Assembly: GCA_963768855.1 (NCBI GenBank)
Contig: CAVYJM010000010.1
Location: 64,001-128,000 of the forward strand
Source of the DNA: an uncultured Thermoplasmata archaeon
Lineage (GTDB): Archaea > Thermoplasmatota > Thermoplasmata > RBG-16-68-12
Length of the DNA: 64,000 nt
Direction: 5' to 3'
The translations under genes were made by a program, and so were the position numbers. Under the pieces are notes generated by a model. That model made no database searches and was not told where the DNA came from. It worked only from the letters and a program-made list of their open reading frames with translations. This document shows positions 20,082 to 30,333 of the stretch, piece after piece (position 1 is the stretch's first letter; each line of letters opens with the position of its first letter).

Positions 20082-21278
20082 ATGGCACGCTCCGACAAGG
20101 GCCGGGACTTCTACATCGCCACGGAAGAGGAGATCCACGCCGGGAAGACGACGGACATCTACTTCCTGCGGACCCTGGACATCCTCAAGAAGGCGGGGCG
20201 GGACCGGACCGTCGTCGACGCGGAGGTCACCACGGGCGGCCTGCCGAACGGTTGGCCCTGGGGCATCCTGGCCGGGATCGAGGAGGCCGTCCACCTCCTG
20301 AAGGGCAAGGGAGTGAGCCTCTGGTCCCTCCCCGAGGGCACCCTGTTCCAGCCGCGCACCCCACGAGGCGTCCCGCTCCCCGTCATGGCCTTGCAGGGCC
20401 CGTATGGCGACTGGGCGTTGTACGAGACGCCTCTCCTGGGGCTGATTTGCCAGACGAGCGGGATCGCCACGAAGGCCGCCCGGCTCCGCAAGCTCGCGAA
20501 CGGCAAGCAGATCTTCTCCTTCGGCGTGCGGCGGATGCATCCCGGGATCGCCCCGCTCATCGAACGCTCCGTGTACGTCGGCGGACTCGACGCGATCACC
20601 ACGCCCCTCGGTTCCTCCCTCCTGGGTCTGCCCGCCATGGGGACGATGCCCCATGCCCTGGTCATCGTCATGGGCGGGTCCCGCGAGGCGTTCCACGCCG
20701 TCCAGAAATACCTGGAGAAGCGAATCCCGCGGATCGCCCTCGTGGACACGTACTACGACGAGAAGACGGAGACCCTCCTCGCCCTGGAGGAGATTCCCGA
20801 CCTGGCAGGCGTCCGCCTCGACACGCCCTCGTCCCGCCGCGGCAACTTCCCGCAAATCGTCCGCGAGATCCGATGGGAACTCGACCTGCGGGGCCACAAG
20901 GACGTCAAGATCTATGTCTCGGGCAACATCGACGAGAAGACGATCCCCGCGCTCCTCGCGGCCGGCGCGGACGGCTTCGGCATCGGCACCTCCCTGAGCA
21001 ACGCCCCCACCATCGACTTCGCCTGCGACATCGTCGAGATCGAGGGCAAGCCCGTCGCGAAGCGGGGCAAGTTCGGAGGGCGGAAGGAGCCGCTGCGCTG
21101 CCCGAAGGACGGGACCTACGAGGTCGGCGTGAGCAAGTGTCCGATGTGCGGGGGTCCGATGAAGCCGGTCTACGTGCAGTACCTGGAAGATGGCGAGCTC
21201 CGGGCCGAGTTGCCCTCCCTGTCCGAGATCCGGAGCCGCGTCATCGCCGAGGTCGACCGCGCGACGCTCGAGGCCTGA
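20082..21278 (+). CDS. pncB: Nicotinate phosphoribosyltransferase (archaeal type)
   Basis: TDIYF, YETPLLG, FGVRRMHP, GTMPHAL, LVDTY, VRLDTPSSRRG, FGIGT, KRGK; C-terminal CPKD/CPMC. Confidence 0.93.
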   Translation: MARSDKGRDFYIATEEEIHAGKTTDIYFLRTLDILKKAGRDRTVVDAEVTTGGLPNGWPWGILAGIEEAVHLLKGKGVSLWSLPEGTLFQPRTPRGVPLPVMALQGPYGDWALYETPLLGLICQTSGIATKAARLRKLANGKQIFSFGVRRMHPGIAPLIERSVYVGGLDAITTPLGSSLLGLPAMGTMPHALVIVMGGSREAFHAVQKYLEKRIPRIALVDTYYDEKTETLLALEEIPDLAGVRLDTPSSRRGNFPQIVREIRWELDLRGHKDVKIYVSGNIDEKTIPALLAAGADGFGIGTSLSNAPTIDFACDIVEIEGKPVAKRGKFGGRKEPLRCPKDGTYEVGVSKCPMCGGPMKPVYVQYLEDGELRAELPSLSEIRSRVIAEVDRATLEA

Positions 21279-22611: not shown

Positions 22612-22659
22612 GCTGAGACCGGAAGGAACCCTTTTATCGGCAGGGACGGTTCGGCCCGC

Positions 22660-22734
22660 GGGCACGTAGGCTAGTTTGGACTAGGCTAGAGGCCTTCGGA
22701 GCCTCAGACCGGGGTTCGAATCCCCGCGTGCCCG
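22660..22734 (+). tRNA. tRNA-Arg(TCG)
   Basis: Acceptor GGGCACG/CGTGCCC, anticodon arm GAGGC-CTTCGGA-GCCTC, T arm CGGGG-TTCGAAT-CCCCG, discriminator G, no encoded CCA; TATA-like ttttatc upstream. Confidence 0.95.
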
Positions 22735-22828
22735 TTTCGTCTCGCGTTTGTCAACTCGGGGCCGTTGACGAGACATACGCACAAATAGCGGATATCCCGC
22801 TCGGCGATCCAATTCAAGAAGGGCTGGG

Positions 22829-25393
22829 ATGCCTCAAGACAGGGGAACTCCCCTCGCTCGCTTCGCGCAGGCCATCGCCGCGGAGGACGGCTTCTCGTTC
22901 GGACGTCCGTCCTTGTCGGACGACGGTTCTACGGTGACCGTCCCGATTCTCCAGACCCATGGTCCCACGCGGCGATACGTGTTGGCCCAGGAAGTGTGGG
23001 ACAGCATCTCGGCCGTGGACTCGGGCCGTCTCGATCGCCTGCGGGTGCACAACGCCTCCGCGGTGCGCGTGTTCTTCCCTCCTGGGACCCTGTTCGTAGG
23101 GCGGGAAACGCCCTCCCGGGGCACGGTCGCCGGCATCCTGCTCGAACCCGGATCCGAAGTAGATGTAGAGGTCAAGTGCGTCCACGCATCGCAACGTCTG
23201 ACGCCCGGGGCGGCCCTGCAATTGGCCGTCTACATCGCGTCCGATGAGTTGCGCCGCGCGCTGGTCTCCAGGGACCAAGGTTGGGTGTGGACGATGGTGC
23301 GCGAGGGCGTGGGGAACAACCGCAGGACGCCCGCCGCAGGCCCATCCCACCGACCCACTCGAGTAGGCGATGACGATCTTCTCGCTTCCCTGACCGCGTC
23401 GAGCCCAGCAGCAAACGGTCCCGACTTGGCGCCGCGCGGGCTCGTGTCGGACAACAGCCAGTGCGGGATGGTCATATTGGATGCCGAAGGAGTCCGGCTC
23501 CTCGAGACCTACGCAAGCCCAGAGTCATGGAACGTCGCAAGCCCTCTCGCTCGGACGCACACCGCCGAGGGAATCGAATCGAATTCGATTCCCGGGATGG
23601 CCTTGACCCTGGACCCCACTCGGGCCGTCCAGGTTGCAAAGGAGTTCCTGCTCCGCGTGGGTGCGGTGGAGTATCGCCACGGGACTCCCTGCAGCTGGTC
23701 GAGCGTCGACTCTGCCTCCGAGTACACCGAATTCGAGGGCGACGTCCTCCATCTCATCGCCTTCGGTTCCGGGAATCTCCGGCCCGAGTCGTACACACGG
23801 GCGCCCTCGGTCTCTCGGAGCGGATGGCTCCCCGGGACGGAGCCGGAAGGCCCGATCCTCGGCTCCTCCCTCACCATGTCAACGCCCGCGTCGGGCGACG
23901 GGGAGACCACCACGCTTCCCGTCGCCGCCGTGGAGCCGGAACAGGAGCCCGAGCCGGAGCGGCCGGAAGCCCGACCGCGCCGCCGGAAGGTCCTCACGAG
24001 CGGCTGGGACGCGCCCACGTTCGAATCCCTCGAGCGGTACTCGCAGAAGGAGTTCGGCGGCGATCGGTCCGCCGCGATGCGGTTCCTCGTGCGCCAAGGG
24101 CTGGACCGGCGCGGCTATCTGGGTCCACGGTCCGCACGCCCGATCGCTGCAACCTGGACCGTCGCGCCAACCGACGAGCCGGCGCCCGACGTCGAACTCG
24201 GTCGCGCCGCGATCGAGGCGCGGATCCAGGACTTCGAGCGGATCGTTCAGACTGATGCATATGCTGATTGGCTCCGTGCGCGGGCCCGCGTCGAGCTCGA
24301 GCGGATGGCGGGGGCCGCGGGAGATGAGTCACTCCGTGTGGTGGCCCAGGCCGCGCTGGACCGGTTGCCCGCCCCGCCCACGGAGCCGGAGCCCTCCCCG
24401 CCTGTCGAGGAGGAGGCGCCTCCCCTTCTGCCTCCCGTGGACGTCCGCCCAATCCTGCGCCGGGCGTTCTCCGCCAGCGCGGGCGGCCGCTACTCGGAGG
24501 CTCTCCTCCTGTTCGACGAGGCCCTCGATGCCGAGCCGGACAACCGCACTGCCCTCCTGGGCCGGGCCGTCGCCCTGCGTCGGTCCGGAAAGGCAGCCGA
24601 AGCCCTCGCGGCCCTCGACCTAGTCCTCCGGCTCGAGCCCGCGAACGCCGCCGCCCTCTTGAACCGCGGTCGGGTGCTCCAGGAGCGGGGCGATCTGCAG
24701 GGAGCGCTGGAGACCTTCGACCGGCTCGCGGTGGTCGCCCCGAACGACTGGGACGTCTGGATGGCGCGGGGCGACGTCCTCGTCCGGATGGGTCAGGATC
24801 GCGGCGCGTTCGACGCCTACTCGGAAGCCCTCCGGCGGAATCCGGACGATGAGAGCATCCAGGCGAAGATTCGGGCCCTGGAGAGGATTCGCCTCGCGCC
24901 GGCCTCCTCACCCGCGCCTCGGCCCGCGCTGCCGCGCGACGTGCAGGAGGGCCAGTCCTTCCTCGTGAAGGCGGCACGGCCCGATCTGGGCTACCGAGTG
25001 CTCCGGACCCTCGCGGTTCGGCAGGTTCCCTCCCTCGTGTTGACCCATCAGCCAGCCGAGACATTGCGGGCCACCCAGGGGCTCGGAGGGACCCGCGTCC
25101 TGGAGCTCAGTCATGCACCGGGCGAGGGCCACCTCAGCCCGACCTCGCTGGTCCTCCTGACCAAGGTCATCGAGCGGTTTGTGGAGGAGAACCACGGGCA
25201 TGCGGTCATTCTCCTCGATGGGCTGGGCGCTCTCATCGCGGGGAACGGGTTCCGCGATACCGTCCTGTTCGTCGAGCGCGTGCACGAAGTCATCCTCCAG
25301 TCGCAAGCCATCTTCTTGATTTGCGTCGCGCCGGACGACCTGAGTGAGAGGGAGGCCGCCATCCTCGAGCGCAACCTCCGCGTCCTGACGTGA
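22829..25393 (+). CDS. Multidomain protein: ARPP-1-like N-terminus, RHH-like segment, TPRs, C-terminal DUF835
   Basis: N-terminal LRVHNAS.VRVFFPPGTLFVG...GILLEPG..V.VKCVH; FESLERYSQKEFGGDRSAAMRFLVRQGL; about four TPRs (24450-24880); DUF835 pattern LSPTSL...VILLDGL.ALIAGNGF...LSEREAAILER. Confidence 0.75.
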   Translation: MPQDRGTPLARFAQAIAAEDGFSFGRPSLSDDGSTVTVPILQTHGPTRRYVLAQEVWDSISAVDSGRLDRLRVHNASAVRVFFPPGTLFVGRETPSRGTVAGILLEPGSEVDVEVKCVHASQRLTPGAALQLAVYIASDELRRALVSRDQGWVWTMVREGVGNNRRTPAAGPSHRPTRVGDDDLLASLTASSPAANGPDLAPRGLVSDNSQCGMVILDAEGVRLLETYASPESWNVASPLARTHTAEGIESNSIPGMALTLDPTRAVQVAKEFLLRVGAVEYRHGTPCSWSSVDSASEYTEFEGDVLHLIAFGSGNLRPESYTRAPSVSRSGWLPGTEPEGPILGSSLTMSTPASGDGETTTLPVAAVEPEQEPEPERPEARPRRRKVLTSGWDAPTFESLERYSQKEFGGDRSAAMRFLVRQGLDRRGYLGPRSARPIAATWTVAPTDEPAPDVELGRAAIEARIQDFERIVQTDAYADWLRARARVELERMAGAAGDESLRVVAQAALDRLPAPPTEPEPSPPVEEEAPPLLPPVDVRPILRRAFSASAGGRYSEALLLFDEALDAEPDNRTALLGRAVALRRSGKAAEALAALDLVLRLEPANAAALLNRGRVLQERGDLQGALETFDRLAVVAPNDWDVWMARGDVLVRMGQDRGAFDAYSEALRRNPDDESIQAKIRALERIRLAPASSPAPRPALPRDVQEGQSFLVKAARPDLGYRVLRTLAVRQVPSLVLTHQPAETLRATQGLGGTRVLELSHAPGEGHLSPTSLVLLTKVIERFVEENHGHAVILLDGLGALIAGNGFRDTVLFVERVHEVILQSQAIFLICVAPDDLSEREAAILERNLRVLT

Positions 25394-25457
25394 CGCCGTC
25401 CGGCCCGGCACGATCCGCGTCAGGCTTAAGCGCGGGCAGGGCCTCCGGCCGAAACGG

Positions 25458-26021
25458 ATGGCATCCCCGCCGCCCGCTCCGGATTCGGTCGGCGCCATCA
25501 TCCGCAAGGCCCTCCCCGAGGATGCGCCGGCCCTCGCGGAGATCTACAACCGCGCCATCGAGGAGCGAATCGCCACCTTCGAGACGGAGGCGCGCTCGGC
25601 GTCGGGCATGCGGGCCTGGATCGGCGAGCACGACGACCGCCATCCGGTCCTCGTGTTGGAGGCGTCCGACGGGCGGAGCCCCGTCGACCGAGGACGACAG
25701 GTCGTTGCCTGGGCCTCCATCGCGAGCTACCGGCCCCGTGCGTGCTACGCGGGAGTCGGGGAGGTCTCCATCTATGTTCGGGAAGGGTACCGCGGTCGAG
25801 GCTTCGGGCAACAGCTCCTCCTCTCGCTGGTCGACGAGGCACGAGACCTCGGGTACTGGAAGCTCGTTTCCCGGATCTTCCCTCATAACACGGCCAGCCG
25901 GCGGCTCGTCGCGCGGTGCGGGTTCCGGGAGGTCGGTGTGTATGAGAAGCACGGGAAGCTGGACGATCGATGGCTCGACACGGTGATCGTGGAGCGACTG
26001 ATACCCGAGAACCTGCGTTGA
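25458..26021 (+). CDS. GNAT N-acetyltransferase, ArsN1/phosphinothricin acetyltransferase-like
   Basis: IYNRAIEERIATFE, SYRPRACYAGVGEVSIYV, RGRGFG, WKLVSRIFPHNTAS, FREVGVYEKHGKLD..WLD. Confidence 0.88.
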   Translation: MASPPPAPDSVGAIIRKALPEDAPALAEIYNRAIEERIATFETEARSASGMRAWIGEHDDRHPVLVLEASDGRSPVDRGRQVVAWASIASYRPRACYAGVGEVSIYVREGYRGRGFGQQLLLSLVDEARDLGYWKLVSRIFPHNTASRRLVARCGFREVGVYEKHGKLDDRWLDTVIVERLIPENLR

Positions 26022-26111
26022 CGTTCGAGTGTGGGGAACCCGGGCATCCCGGTCCCGGTCTGATGCCTCATGCTTATGCGGCGAACGGGATTGAGGGAAC
26101 CGAGGAATCCC

Positions 26112-26657
26112 ATGCCGAAGAAGACGAAGCGAGCCGCCAAGAAACCACGCCGCGCGCCGAAGCTGAGCCCAATCCCGCCGGGCATGCGCACGGTGACCCC
26201 CTACCTCTTCATTGCGGGTGCTGCGCAGGCTCTCGAGTTCTACAAGAAGGCTTTCGGGGCGAAGGAAATTTCACGACAGCCCACGCCGGATGGCAAGTTG
26301 ATTCACGCGATGATGAAGATCGGCGATTCCTTTGTCATGATGTCCGACGCATTCGAGGAAACCCCGACCCCGACACCCCCGACCGCCGGCGCCCCCACGG
26401 CCATGATCCACATCTACACGAGGGATGTGGACAAGCTCTGGAACCAGGCCCTCGCGGCGGGTGCCAAGGTCTCCATGCCCCTCGACAACGTGTTCTGGGG
26501 CGAGCGGTACGGGCAGCTCGAGGACCCTTTCGGACACCGATGGACCCTCTCCATGCGGATCCCGATGAGCCGCCAGGAACGGGAGGCGAAACAGAAAGCT
26601 TCCATGGCGATGTTCGCCTCCGGCGAACATCCGGGCTCCGAGCAGCAACCGCGTTAG
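26112..26657 (+). CDS. VOC/glyoxalase family protein (PhnB-like)
   Basis: TVTPYL, ALEFYKKAFGA, HAMMKIGDS, FWGERYGQLEDPFGHRW. Confidence 0.9.
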   Translation: MPKKTKRAAKKPRRAPKLSPIPPGMRTVTPYLFIAGAAQALEFYKKAFGAKEISRQPTPDGKLIHAMMKIGDSFVMMSDAFEETPTPTPPTAGAPTAMIHIYTRDVDKLWNQALAAGAKVSMPLDNVFWGERYGQLEDPFGHRWTLSMRIPMSRQEREAKQKASMAMFASGEHPGSEQQPR

Positions 26658-27586
26658 CCGCTCTCCGAGTCCTCGAAGACCGCGGCGCGGTGCGATTTCG
26701 GAAGGAGAGCGTAGACCCGATCGCGCCCGCCATCGAAACCGATCGTGTGGGCACCCATTTCCGTGGGACAAGATTCGATCCGTTCCAGGGTTCGTGCGTC
26801 GAACACATCGACCACGCCAGGGTCGCCGATGGCCACGTAGAGGTGATTCCGGCGGGCGTTGAGGAAGACCACGTCGGGCGGTCCACTGAGGGGCCGCTCG
26901 GCGAGCACCTCGCCCGAGGATCGGTTGAGGACGATCACTCGGCCGTCGTCGCAGGCGCAGAAGAGGCGCCCCCGCGTCGCGTCGAGGTCCAGCCCGTGCG
27001 GTCCCACGGCCGGCACGGACAACGATCGCGCGATGTGATCTGGATGCGGGACGTCGAGCACGACGATCTGCGGTGGATCGCGGATGTTGACGTAGAAGGC
27101 CCTCGTCTTGTCGTCGTACAGGGCCCACCGCGTGCGGCCCGGGACTGGGACATCTGCCACCCTTCTCTTCGAGGGGACGTCCACCAGGGAGACCGTCGTC
27201 GATTCCGGCACCTTCGGGTCCCCCACGTTGGCTGCGAGGAGGAGCCCACGGGAGGGAGCGAAGGCCAGCCCGTTCGGATGGACCCCCACCTCCACCCGGG
27301 CCGCCTCGGCCTCCTTCCCCTCCTCGAAGAAGCTGACCGTGTCCTCCGCGCGGTTCGAGGTGAAGATGAGATTCCGTTCTTCGGAGACGAGGACGCCCGC
27401 CACCCCCTTCAGTCCGGGGATGGATCGAAGGTAGCGGTTCGCGGGGCCGTCGATGACGTCGACCGCATCGTTCGCGGTGTGGGCCACGTAGAGGCGGCCC
27501 GATGCTCCGTGGACGGCCGCGTGATCGAAGCCGCCCTCCCCGAGGTGTTCCGGCAGGGCGATGTAACCTCGGGGTTCGAGGCTCAT
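26654..27586 (-). CDS. YncE/YVTN-type beta-propeller protein
   Basis: GGFDHAAV..RLYVAH; repeated blades GVHPNGLA, VGPHGLDLD, GAHTIG. Confidence 0.82.
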   Translation of the reverse strand: MSLEPRGYIALPEHLGEGGFDHAAVHGASGRLYVAHTANDAVDVIDGPANRYLRSIPGLKGVAGVLVSEERNLIFTSNRAEDTVSFFEEGKEAEAARVEVGVHPNGLAFAPSRGLLLAANVGDPKVPESTTVSLVDVPSKRRVADVPVPGRTRWALYDDKTRAFYVNIRDPPQIVVLDVPHPDHIARSLSVPAVGPHGLDLDATRGRLFCACDDGRVIVLNRSSGEVLAERPLSGPPDVVFLNARRNHLYVAIGDPGVVDVFDARTLERIESCPTEMGAHTIGFDGGRDRVYALLPKSHRAAVFEDSESG

Positions 27587-28050
27587 CGGGGCGCGTGCTC
27601 CAGCTTGCCCCTTCCTTCGACCTTGAGCTTGCAGTAGGTGTACAGGGCGTCGTACGCCGGGAACTGGAGGCGCATGTTGTCGTGGTCGTCCTTCGCGTTC
27701 GTGCGGAACCCGAGCGCCATGGCCTCCAGCCCTGCGCCTTCCGGTCGCGGCTTGTGCGGCGCCGCGTCCGCGGTCCGGACGATCTCGGCCATGTCGAGGA
27801 GCGCGGGATCCGTGAGTTTGTACTTCCGGATGATCGCATCGAAGCTGCAGCGCTCGTCGTCGCCGTCCTTGTAGTGGAAGAGCTCGGCACCCGGCGCATC
27901 GAACGAGATGGCGCCCTGCTCCTTCGCCACGTCGAGGACCTTCTCCCTCGGGACGAACAGGAACTCCGCTTTCGCATCTACGAACCGGGTGATGAGCCAG
28001 GGACAGGCGATCCGATCCACCTTGGCCTTCTCACGCGTTACCCATTTCAT
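27583..28050 (-). CDS. Stand-alone ChrB-domain (chromate resistance family) protein
   Basis: MKWVTRE..KVDRIACPWLI.RFVD..AEFLFV, CSFDAII..Y.L.DPAL, D...YDALY. Confidence 0.88.
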   Translation of the reverse strand: MKWVTREKAKVDRIACPWLITRFVDAKAEFLFVPREKVLDVAKEQGAISFDAPGAELFHYKDGDDERCSFDAIIRKYKLTDPALLDMAEIVRTADAAPHKPRPEGAGLEAMALGFRTNAKDDHDNMRLQFPAYDALYTYCKLKVEGRGKLEHAPR

Positions 28051-28118
28051 CGGTGTCTCCACCCGCCGGCACCGAGCGGTGGACGGCTACAAAAGGCTGG
28101 TGCCAAGTGACGGCCGCG

Positions 28119-29402
28119 TCATCTTGGCGGGGGTTCCCCGGGAGGAGCTTTCGGCTTTTCCTCCGGCGGGTGGACCTTCCGGAAGCTCACGTAGATCAGC
28201 GTGTCGTAGACGAGTTTGAGGACCCCGGCGGCGACGAGCGGCGTCCCGAGCCAGAGGTTCTCGAGGGCGTAGCCCGCGATGGAGGGACTGATCGACGACG
28301 TCACCGTTCGCGTGGTGCTCGTGAATCCCGCGGCCGGAGTCCGGTCGGCCTCGTCCACGATGGCCATGACGTAGGATTGCCGCGTCGGCACGTCCATCTG
28401 GGACAGCGACTGGCGGCACAGGAGGAGGACCACCGCCCCCAGGGCGGTCGGAGCGAACGCGACCCCGATGAGGAAGACGTTCGAGGGGACATGGCTGAAG
28501 ACCATCGTCCGGAGCAGCCCGATTCGTTTGGCGATGGGATTCGCGAGGAAGAAGGAGCCCGCCGTGACGAGCTGGGTGAGGAGGAAGAGGAGGCCCAAGG
28601 ACCCCAGTTGGAGTCCGAAGCGGTCCGCGAAGTAGAGCGAGAGGATGTTTCCCCCGATGAAGCCGCCGCCGAACGAGTCGATCGCGAACAGCGCCGAGAG
28701 CCGGTACACGATGGGCCGTGCACTCGGAGACAGGATGGCGCGTTTCTTCGCAGCGGCGTCCGACTCCACCTGCTTCGACAGCCGGGAGTAGAGGAAAGCT
28801 CCGAGGAGCCCCGAGGCCAGATACCCGAGGAAGAAGGGCCGCAGCTGGTCCGGCGACGGGGTCGATGCGAGGGCGGCCAGGCCCGCCCCGACCGCAGACG
28901 CGCCGTACCCGACGAAGTTGTAGATGCTGAAGGCGAACGTCCTGCGGTTCGGCTCGCAGGTTCGCGGGAGCATGGCCTGTTCGAGCGAGAGGAAGGGGCC
29001 GACCTCCCCCGCGCCGACGGTCATGTTGCCGACAATCCCGGCGAAGACCGGGGCCCACCAGGCCGTCGTGCTGAAGAGGAGCGCCCCTGCGATGAAATCG
29101 GTGAGAGCGAAGAACACGAGCGTCCGCCTGCGCCCGATGCGGTCCGCGACGAAGCTGATGACGAACGTGTACGCCGCGCTGCTGAGGATTGTGAGCGTCA
29201 GGACGATGCCGATCTGGACGAGGGTGAACCCCAGGTATTGCAGGTACAGGGAGAAGGCCACGCTCAGGAACCCGTACGGGATCGTCCGGGTCGCCTTCTC
29301 GAGGAAGACGAGCTTCCCATCCCGGCTGATCCAGTCGCCGTAGCCCACCGGAGACCCTCCCCGCCTTCGTGTCTGTCCCGTCGGCATGGCCGGCGAGGTC
29401 AT
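28119..29402 (-). CDS. MFS transporter
   Basis: About 12 TM helices, ADRIGRRR motif A, GAGEVGPFLSLEQA, LSQMDVPTRQSYVMAIV; start 29402 or 29387. Confidence 0.9.
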   Translation of the reverse strand: MTSPAMPTGQTRRRGGSPVGYGDWISRDGKLVFLEKATRTIPYGFLSVAFSLYLQYLGFTLVQIGIVLTLTILSSAAYTFVISFVADRIGRRRTLVFFALTDFIAGALLFSTTAWWAPVFAGIVGNMTVGAGEVGPFLSLEQAMLPRTCEPNRRTFAFSIYNFVGYGASAVGAGLAALASTPSPDQLRPFFLGYLASGLLGAFLYSRLSKQVESDAAAKKRAILSPSARPIVYRLSALFAIDSFGGGFIGGNILSLYFADRFGLQLGSLGLLFLLTQLVTAGSFFLANPIAKRIGLLRTMVFSHVPSNVFLIGVAFAPTALGAVVLLLCRQSLSQMDVPTRQSYVMAIVDEADRTPAAGFTSTTRTVTSSISPSIAGYALENLWLGTPLVAAGVLKLVYDTLIYVSFRKVHPPEEKPKAPPGEPPPR

Positions 29403-29513
29403 CAGGCCTTCGGAGCCGACACCTCCGTGGGAATCGTCAGAGGAACACCGGTGGTCCCAAGGACGAGGCCATCGCACGGCGCCCGCATGAGAGGGGAGGG
29501 CCGTTGGCTGGTG

Positions 29514-29554
29514 GGAGGAAGAAAAGGGGGACGGGCCGCCCTCAGAGCGGCCCG
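29514..29554 (-). terminator. Hairpin plus T-tract terminator-like element for the 29542-30333 gene
   Basis: 8-bp stem cgggccgc/gcggcccg (29532-29554) followed on the minus strand by cccctttttcttcc. Confidence 0.5.
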
Positions 29555-30333
29555 CAGGTGTAGGTGGGGTGGTTCGGGATCCCGAGGCCATCCGGGCGCT
29601 CGGCCCAGAACTTGAACTCGAAGCTTCCCCGGGATTGCGGGTGGATTTCCACGAGGAAGCCGTTCTGGGAGCCGTCTCCCGAAGCGACGACGTGGTCGGA
29701 GAAAGGCATCGTGAGGACCCAGTCCGTGGCCCCCGTCGTCATCGCGATCATCCCGTAGTAGTTCAGGACCTTGAGGATGTCCGACCCGGAGTTCCGGACG
29801 GGATCCGTCGCGTTCACGCCCGGGTCGATGAGCGACCGGTAGCCCGCGGCGTCCCGTTCTGCGATTTCGTGCAGGACGGACGGCCAGTAGTCCGCGCCCC
29901 CGAGGTCCGCGGTGAGCGTCCGCAGGGGGGTCCCCGCGGCGTAGGACACGCCCTTCGCTGCCAGGAGAGGACCGTCCCACCCGATGTAGTAGTCCAGCGT
30001 CCGTGAGCTCACGACCTCCTCGGCCCCGCAGCCCGCGTAGACCGTCAGCTCGTTCGGGACCGTGTTGTTCGGATTCCGCACCTCGATTCGCAGGACCGCG
30101 GGCACGGGCCGGTTTGCGTTGTTCGCCATCGTCGCCACAACCCGGAACACGTCCCCGGGGGCGACGCTCAGCGGGACGCCCTCCACGGTCAGGGTGATGG
30201 CCTGGCCGTTCACCTGCACGTCTCGATCCACGGTGTTGCTGATCGTGGGCGTGAGCACGCCCACCGCGCTGGCCGCGAGGACGACCACAAGGAGGACCGT
30301 CCACCGCGTCCGCAGTTTCTTCCCAAGACCCAT
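29542..30333 (-). CDS. Hypothetical secreted or surface protein
   Basis: Basic N-terminus plus hydrophobic signal/anchor, then a beta-rich domain; GAGGTG RBS before ATG 30333. Confidence 0.75.
   Translation of the reverse strand: MGLGKKLRTRWTVLLVVVLAASAVGVLTPTISNTVDRDVQVNGQAITLTVEGVPLSVAPGDVFRVVATMANNANRPVPAVLRIEVRNPNNTVPNELTVYAGCGAEEVVSSRTLDYYIGWDGPLLAAKGVSYAAGTPLRTLTADLGGADYWPSVLHEIAERDAAGYRSLIDPGVNATDPVRNSGSDILKVLNYYGMIAMTTGATDWVLTMPFSDHVVASGDGSQNGFLVEIHPQSRGSFEFKFWAERPDGLGIPNHPTYTCGPL

Follow-up and report, generated by a model that had tools for sequence, protein, structure and literature searches.

A putative one-component regulator of uncultured Thermoplasmata joining ARPP-1 to a ribbon-helix-helix-like segment, TPRs and DUF835

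A gene of unusual domain composition, designated P0001, was analysed in a stretch of 64,000 nucleotides (nt) from an uncultured Thermoplasmata archaeon (GenBank assembly GCA_963768855.1, contig CAVYJM010000010.1, positions 64,001 to 128,000 of the forward strand), which is called the window below. The gene lies at 22829..25393 on the plus strand, starts with ATG and encodes a protein of 854 amino acids (aa). The protein is probably a lineage-specific one-component transcription regulator, with an ARPP-1 domain as the input, a ribbon-helix-helix (RHH)-like segment as the DNA binder and a TPR/iKaiC part as the docking end. This proposal builds on which domains the protein contains, which of its residues are conserved, how its sister proteins are built, where the gene occurs and how well the DNA upstream of it is conserved.

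Results

Module layout of P0001

The codon-position GC of the open reading frame (ORF) at 22829-25393 was 0.73/0.52/0.82, which fits a real gene in a 67% GC genome. There are 46 full-length orthologs with identities of 43-62% and coverages of 97-100%, and the start M1 and the N-terminus were kept across all of them. An earlier note on this DNA, made from the letters alone, had described an 854-aa ORF with four modules joined by Pro/Glu-rich linkers, and all of these are present in the sequence. In order, and all on the plus strand, the protein contains the ARPP-1/DUF6569 domain (22829..23788, aa 1-320) with its beta-barrel insert (23006-23236, aa 60-136), a first linker rich in Pro/Glu/Ser/Thr (23789..23974, aa 321-382; mean pairwise identity 20%), the RHH-like putative DNA-binding segment (23975..24127, aa 383-433), a three-helix segment predicted by AlphaFold2 (AF2) (24185..24373, aa 453-515), four TPRs matching Pfam TPR_2 (24437..24898, aa 537-690), and the Pfam domain DUF835, or 'iKaiC' (24944..25393, aa 706-854). 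Pro/Glu/Ala/Ser/Thr made up 63-86% of the linker residues, and the conservation of the linkers was only about 20%. No signal peptide and no membrane-like stretch were seen in the sequence of P0001. When aa 276-375, 376-445 and 440-540 were scanned in isolation against Pfam, no match was obtained.

The N-terminal domain is ARPP-1

The Pfam model PF20208 matched aa 61-278. Its scores, 27.2 bits with the entire sequence as query and 29.4 bits with aa 1-345, are marginal against the cut-off of 27, and a precomputed match to this model existed in about half of the orthologs. A phmmer search with aa 1-320 as the query against 1.84 billion representatives returned 279 representatives at E <= 1e-3 and 145 at E <= 1e-10. 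When the nearest relatives were scanned with Pfam, 120 of 120 matched ARPP-1, with a best E of 7.6e-36. Five residues, R97, C117, Q150, W154 and E226, were invariant across the 46 orthologs; among the 145 wider relatives R97 was still invariant and C117, Q150 and W154 were at least 90% conserved. From the phmmer representatives, the PF20208 matches of the relatives and the conserved R97/C117/Q150/W154, the N-terminal domain is a genuine ARPP-1, as the earlier note had proposed.

ARPP-1/DUF6569 is known from computation alone, in a single paper (Iyer, Burroughs, Anantharaman and Aravind 2022, PMC9503650). There the ARPP family is described with an absolutely conserved Cys and Gln, and with a fold of two four-stranded meanders, the first of which carries an inserted beta-barrel. 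A literature search for DUF6569 or ARPP-2/3 by name found no paper mentioning them. The AF2 model of aa 1-320 (mean predicted local distance difference test score, pLDDT, 88.7; predicted template modelling score, pTM, 0.87) placed strands at 22-42, the barrel at 60-136, strands at 211-228 and the second meander at 282-312. This order agrees with the published description, the comparison being one of strand order without superposition. Searches of the PDB with the AF2 model by Foldseek and VIA-align found no counterpart of the whole domain. The matches were limited to the small barrel at aa 67-135 and comprised the F1-ATPase N-domain and phage baseplate proteins (Z <= 5.5).

In comparison with the ARPP/ARPP-1 proteins of the conflict systems centred on ADP-ribosylglycohydrolase (ARG) (PMC9503650), the N-terminal 320 aa of P0001 are homologous, keep the signature Cys/Gln (C117, Q150) together with Arg97, and have the same predicted strand order in a fold that is absent from solved structures. 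P0001 differs from them in that no partner gene for ARG, Macro, restriction endonuclease (REase), HIRAN or WYL was seen, and in being a single chain with the RHH-like module, TPRs and DUF835. It also departs from the wider ARPP-1 family at two near-invariant positions, R84 and Q95, which are replaced by Pro and by Ala/Pro, respectively, in the P0001 clade. Two other fusions were encountered among the ARPP-1 proteins. In P0117 (534 aa), ARPP-1 is fused to CDC48_N/CDC48_2, and a weak ARPP-2 (PF22549) match lies inside the ARPP-1 region. In one representative, an HNH nuclease domain is fused to ARPP-1.

ARPP-1 is followed by small DNA-binding domains in sister proteins

Among the nearest 145 ARPP-1 representatives, 68 were 400 aa or longer, and 57 of those 68 had one homologous C-terminal tail in common. 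Pfam read this tail as a winged helix of the HxlR/HVO_A0261_N/ArsR/MarR type. Some of these proteins carry JGI labels as HxlR or Lrp regulators, and one NCBI record of the group is from a Thermococci archaeon. The best non-orthologous match to P0001, P0066 (432 aa), consists of ARPP-1, a linker and the same RHH-like tail, which reads RKRKILTSGWD...KEFEGDKSKAIRTLVKNGLEKKGY, and the protein stops one residue later. Because 57 of the 145 relatives have winged-helix tails and P0066 has the RHH-like tail, ARPP-1 followed by a small DNA-binding domain is, as judged from the sequences, a recurring design. The idea of a one-component sensor or regulator, which the earlier note had put forward, is strengthened by these two groups of relatives.

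P0001 corresponds to this core of ARPP-1 and DNA binder plus about 420 further residues. The archaeal ARPP-1 and winged-helix proteins (about 410-460 aa, e.g., P0067 and P0140) and P0066 have the arrangement of ARPP-1, linker and small DNA-binding domain in common with P0001, with 28-34% identity over the ARPP-1 domain, and the RHH-like tail of both P0066 and P0001 follows the pattern RK.LTSGWD...KEF.GD.S.A.R.LV..GL..GY. However, these proteins end after the DNA-binding domain, whereas P0001 adds three helices, four TPRs and DUF835, and most ARPP-1 relatives have a winged helix in place of the RHH of P0001. In the accessible portion of PMC9503650, ARPP adjoins a WYL regulator gene, and fusions to DNA binders are not mentioned.

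The most conserved part of P0001 resembles a ribbon-helix-helix

The region of aa 383-433 was the most conserved part of P0001, with a mean pairwise identity of 75% and 18 invariant residues in the 46 orthologs. Within it, the RHH-like segment ending RSAAMRFLVRQGL was found at aa 388-431. The segment is ordered as RKVLTSGWD, a helix at 395-407, a GDRS turn and a helix at 413-428, and the turn residues G411-D412-R413-S414 were invariant across the orthologs. The AF2 monomer model gave an extended stretch followed by the same two helices, 395-407 and 413-428. The same genome encodes six genuine RHH_1 segments, and in hhalign comparisons the segment of P0001 aligned with these at P 1.5e-4 over 33 columns, in register and with RS..R aligned, while the controls with reversed RHH, winged-helix, three-helix and TPR profiles gave P 0.17-0.37. 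Two NikR-like RHH_1 segments of the same genome read RSEALR.LIRQGL, as compared with RSAAMRFLVRQGL in P0001. The nearest named clusters to the segment in the ESM Atlas were CopG-family RHH, with a score of 0.90.

Since the AF2 helices, the hhalign match in register and the ESM Atlas clusters agree, and the segment stands in the same place as the winged helix of the sister proteins, we consider it rather likely that aa 383-433 form a ribbon-helix-helix. The RHH-like segment of the earlier note is thus present, with profile, secondary-structure and language-model support, although no Pfam RHH model matched it. The NikR/CopG-type RHH regulators, e.g., the NikR-like L033 and L035 of the same genome, resemble P0001 in the succession of helix A, turn and helix B with RS..R..L in register, and in the design of a small RHH combined with a ligand-sensing domain. 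They differ in that their RHH is N-terminal, whereas that of P0001 is located mid-chain, after the sensor, and fails the Pfam RHH_1 model; in addition, their sensor is an ACT-like metal-binding domain and that of P0001 is ARPP-1.

The C-terminal half contains helical repeats and a degenerate DUF835

The AF2 helices at 453-474, 480-496 and 500-512 had pLDDT values above 90, and the pairwise identity of this segment was 53%. Fold searches of the PDB with the model of aa 376-540 gave generic helical-repeat matches only, and these fell on aa 453-515 (Z <= 9). The three-helix segment is probably a helical cap or an extension of the TPR array. The four TPRs recognised by the earlier note were recovered as four Pfam TPR_2 stretches at about aa 545-680 (E 2.5e-18). 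They share 56% identity with the final four TPRs of another protein from the same genus, about 715 aa in length, which for this reason is the likely donor of the TPR module. This other protein combines eight TPRs with a helix-hairpin-helix (HhH) at its C-terminus and is kept across the genus and the sister genus. Its copies were found at L017:22-2172 (G226), L021 and L024, with no Pfam match in the N-terminal 330 aa, and the copy of the own genome was seen as a 387-aa ORF at L048:1398-2561.

The DUF835 model (PF05763) matched aa 720-849 with 70.6 bits against a cut-off of 33.1 (E 1.5e-19), covering profile positions 7-135 of 136. Stand-alone DUF835 proteins, which are about 200 aa long, share about 46% identity with this domain. 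Because the TPRs and DUF835 are 56% and about 46% identical, respectively, to the lineage's own proteins, the fusion looks as if it was assembled from local parts. The change from DGLEYL to DGLGAL that had been noticed earlier was also found: the motif LLDG[LIF]E[YF]L of the paralogs in the same genome is LLDGLGAL in P0001, and among the 46 orthologs both the E and the Y/F position are free to vary. The Walker A pattern [AG]xxxxGK[ST] was not found in P0001, nor in the C-terminal 200 aa of any of the 47 clusters of the family that were checked (P0001-P0047), and phmmer with the DUF835 of P0001 found no match in the PDB.

DUF835 has been described as 'iKaiC', a divergent and possibly inactivated KaiC-type ATPase domain that serves as a response-regulator output in Methanomicrobia and Thermoplasmata (Galperin et al. 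2018, PMC5847659). The role of a signalling output, which the earlier note had assigned to it, is an inference from this paper rather than a shown function. P0001 is similar to the REC-DUF835 and REC-PAS-DUF835 response regulators of PMC5847659 in carrying a C-terminal iKaiC as a distal signalling module, in belonging to the same archaeal class and in lacking Walker A. On the other hand, P0001 has no receiver domain and no phosphorelay, its input is ARPP-1, the RHH-like module and the TPRs stand between the input and DUF835, and the LLDGxE[YF]L motif is degenerate.

DUF835 is a promiscuous module in the same genome, with 13 matches, twelve of them besides P0001. Other fusions of DUF835 in this genome include a DnaA-type ATPase (L006:1480-3321(-)), a 7TM protein (HisKA_7TM) with two DUF835 (L008:709-2460(+)), a DUF5915+HhH+double zinc ribbon protein (L001:1459-3285(-)) within a frame of 1419 aa, and a MAM-like region in a protein of 835 aa (L046:968-3475(+)).

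Both TPRs and DUF835 are modules for protein interaction, the TPR+HhH paralog was evidently the source of the TPR block (56%), and no curated RHH model matches the central segment. These properties would suit a scaffold that does not bind DNA, in which the RHH-like segment would serve only for dimerisation or as a peptide motif and the TPR/DUF835 adaptor would bring an ARPP-1 enzyme to a protein complex. However, the profile match to RHH was specific, with clean controls, and the segment occupies the position of the winged helix in the sister proteins and is the most constrained region of the whole protein. A scaffold of this kind is consequently regarded as improbable in comparison with a DNA-binding regulator.

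The DNA between tRNA-Arg and P0001 is conserved

The sole tRNA of the window, predicted by ARAGORN, is tRNA-Arg (anticodon TCG) at 22659..22735 on the plus strand. It ends 93 nt before the ORF, so that the position downstream of tRNA-Arg given by the earlier note is correct. The same tRNA-Arg precedes the orthologs in G256, G128, G313 and UBA8695, which is every readable case. The 93 nt between the tRNA and the ATG (22736..22828, plus strand) are a putative promoter/operator by their conservation: the nucleotide identity of this region between the window and three orthologous loci was 72-87%, as compared with 56-66% for the adjacent ARPP coding DNA. The region contains an invariant block, TTTGTCAAC.CGGGG, at 22747-22761, and an imperfect inverted repeat, GTCAAC (22750-22755)-N8-GTTGAC (22764-22769). 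Two A/T-rich elements, ACAAATA (22781-22787) and GGATATCC (22790-22797), follow, and AAGAAGGG is conserved immediately before the ATG. From these elements the region resembles a promoter with an operator, to which a regulator could bind. A hairpin was considered for this region and rejected, with RNAalifold giving -4.5 kcal/mol with a covariation penalty and no stable conserved hairpin; a terminator scan found no terminator.

DNA binding could also serve another purpose, in which P0001 would sense DNA lesions or adducts: Cys117 would covalently link an aldehyde or ribose moiety on DNA in an SRAP-like manner, and the RHH would provide general DNA affinity. An analogy with SRAP and a linkage to the 3'-end-binding HIRAN domain have been published (PMC9503650), ARPP-1 is repeatedly fused to DNA-binding domains and once to HNH, and the invariant Cys, Gln and Arg suggest chemistry rather than binding alone. 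Nevertheless, the fused winged helices belong to the classic transcription-factor types HxlR, MarR and ArsR, and the very high conservation of both the RHH segment and the upstream DNA fits the recognition of a specific operator better. Linkage to repair genes was not seen, since the MutY-like gene located 5 kb upstream is also present in genomes that have no P0001. Specific operator recognition by a transcription regulator is preferred from these points, and we give the sensing of lesions little credence.

Distribution and genomic context

About 47 clusters at 90% identity span the full length of P0001 at 43-62% identity, all of them from metagenome-assembled Thermoplasmata, and they carry automatic labels only, 'DUF6569 family protein' and 'TPR repeat protein'. 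The gene is carried by 7 of 38 species genomes of one Thermoplasmata genus. The architecture, which the earlier note did not recognise from the literature, is accordingly not a widespread annotated family. The seven carriers are the genomes with the GcvH-tRNA DNA closest to that of the window (79-87%). ARPP-1 was detected in 5 of 301 genomes of the class, and 4 of the 5 belong to the P0001 family. The 301 genomes include the unpublished G098, which underlies none of the conclusions. The other one is L056 (G014:C50:2825-3256), a canonical ARPP-1 (E 6e-47) with an in-frame TAG inside the match, which may reflect a broken gene, two genes or a sequencing error. The flanking genes were 78-94% identical between carriers, as compared with 53-62% for the P0001 gene and 42-54% for its ARPP part. 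Most simply, the gene was gained once, by the ancestor of a sub-clade, and has since been inherited vertically while its sensor domain diverged fast.

The genes upstream encode MutY-like, RNA methyltransferase, M20 peptidase, NAPRT-like, methyltransferase and GcvH proteins, and those downstream encode GNAT, glyoxalase/VOC, propeller-like, ChrB-C and MFS proteins. The GNAT acetyltransferase gene (25458..26021, plus strand; Pfam; GC3 0.835) begins 64 nt downstream of P0001 and is part of a variable cassette, as is the glyoxalase/VOC-superfamily gene (26070..26657, plus strand; Pfam). GNAT is present in G256, left as a remnant in G128 and not found in G313, and VOC is present in G256 and G313 and not found in G128. 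Neither gene was found at the locus in the genomes that have no regulator, where the region was readable; there the MFS, ChrB-C and propeller genes follow the tRNA in varying order. It is possible that the GNAT gene is a co-transcript or a target of the regulator. Three ORFs on the plus strand, 25390-25986, 25970-27637 and 27502-28110, were dismissed as wrong frames by codon-position GC. The same measure cleanly separates the shadow frames of at least 500 aa that run opposite to other-strand genes, at 25970-27637(+), 26271-27977(-) and 28053-29615(+), from the real downstream genes at 26070-26657(+), 26654-27586(-), 27583-28062(-) and 28119-29591(-).

The tRNA-Arg(TCG) locus is a rearrangement hotspot in the genus (L038-L045). 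In G100 (L042:10021-10191, G100:C16), two tRNA-Arg(TCG) stand in tandem, 22 nt apart, and in several genomes the MFS/ChrB-C genes are located between GcvH and the tRNA, not after the tRNA. No integrase was seen, and neither a downstream repeat of the tRNA 3' end nor an att-like repeat was found. The only repeat is a 14-nt exact copy of the anticodon-arm region of tRNA-Arg (22690-22703) at 29404-29417 (blastn-short E 0.003). It falls within the MFS gene, at the 5' end, and may be due to chance or may be an old attachment-site remnant. The recent integration of a mobile element was dropped as an explanation; a rearranging locus, together with a single gain by the sub-clade ancestor, fits better.

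The published contexts of ARPP (PMC9503650) are ARG-centred conflict systems, and the earlier note had linked P0001 to NAD+/ADP-ribose conflict. As part of such an antiviral system, ARPP-1 would act on moieties derived from ADP-ribose, with the RHH holding the protein on DNA and the TPR-DUF835 part recruiting or assembling an effector. Several features of the gene are of the kind expected: ARPP is the fastest-evolving folded part (43% identity, as compared with 75% in the RHH), divergence of the gene is far faster than that of its flanks, its occurrence is patchy both in the genus and in the class, and it sits at a rearranging spot beside a tRNA. On the other hand, no match to ARG (PF03747) or Macro (PF01661) was found in the genome, which is 93.6% complete (a rhodanese-phosphatase was not searched for), and neither P0001 nor any of six proteins encoded nearby matched a PADLOC-DB 2.0 family at E <= 0.01. 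There is no nuclease, helicase or other effector domain in or beside the gene, and neither an integrase nor an att-like repeat accompanies it. The minimal locus of P0066 was likewise devoid of conflict genes, none being found on its contig. The neighbours of P0001 are housekeeping genes together with GNAT and the glyoxalase-type gene. The ADP-ribose/NAD+ link of the earlier note is therefore unsupported, and a role in conflict is unlikely, being kept alive at a low level because of the fast evolution and the patchiness.

The NAPRT-like gene, located at 20082-21278(+), 1.5 kb upstream, encodes a protein of 398 aa that belongs to the quinolinate/nicotinate phosphoribosyltransferase family (NAD salvage). 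Only two carrier loci, in G256 and G128, cover this gene; both contain it, at 92-94% identity, along with the methyltransferase and GcvH (78-94% for the three genes). A link to NAD through this gene was set aside as unsupported, not disproved, since the stretches from genomes that have no regulator reached only GcvH upstream of the tRNA.

Discussion

We propose that P0001 is a cytoplasmic protein in which ARPP-1, with the family Arg, Cys and Gln retained, would act as the input by binding, or covalently reacting with, a small sugar- or nucleotide-containing molecule. The RHH-like module would dimerise and bind DNA, most likely at the conserved 93-nt region before its own gene. The regulator would then control its own gene, and perhaps the GNAT and glyoxalase genes downstream. 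The three-helix/TPR array and the inactivated KaiC-like DUF835 would not hydrolyse ATP and may instead offer surfaces for docking or oligomerisation. Through this docking end the switch could be tied to other proteins, e.g., the twelve other DUF835 domains or active KaiC-type ATPases. The DNA binding, the operator, the ligand and the partners are the predicted parts of this scheme.

Several results weigh against a DNA-binding regulator. Regarding the RHH-like segment, its AF2 monomer model has no beta-strand, no Pfam family matched aa 376-445 at E <= 10, the scan of the genome with RHH_1 picked six other genes and not P0001, and phmmer with the segment found no match in the PDB; the fold searches of the middle region (model of aa 376-540) did not cover the RHH-like part. 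The upstream inverted repeat is a short one, and in G256 it is broken. GNAT and VOC are not kept in all carriers, and for this reason no regulon was defined. The describers of ARPP-1 (PMC9503650) suspect an enzyme and not a passive sensor, and the domain is uncharacterised. Finally, any binding partner of DUF835 is a prediction.

A broader and more tentative extension is that ARPP-1 might be more than an enzyme of conflict systems and might serve widely in archaea as the input of one-component transcription factors. It would be switched when it binds a ribose- or nucleotide-derived metabolite or captures it covalently through the Cys, and in the P0001 clade it might also be wired through the TPRs and the inactivated KaiC-like domain into the large DUF835 network of the lineage. 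If this is true, the wiring of ARPP-1 to the DUF835 network would be a previously undescribed signalling route.

The carriers are a small group of soil and groundwater archaea, and since the gene is confined to a few uncultured Thermoplasmata, its general impact is moderate. The finding is of value mainly for the wider pattern of ARPP-1 and DNA binder, together with the simple tests that it opens. ARPP-1 is recast by this pattern as the likely sensor of a transcription switch, and one clade adds the RHH-like module, TPRs and DUF835 to it. P0001 also provides a concrete example of DUF835 ('iKaiC') joined with an input and a DNA-binding domain, which may help to reveal the role of DUF835.

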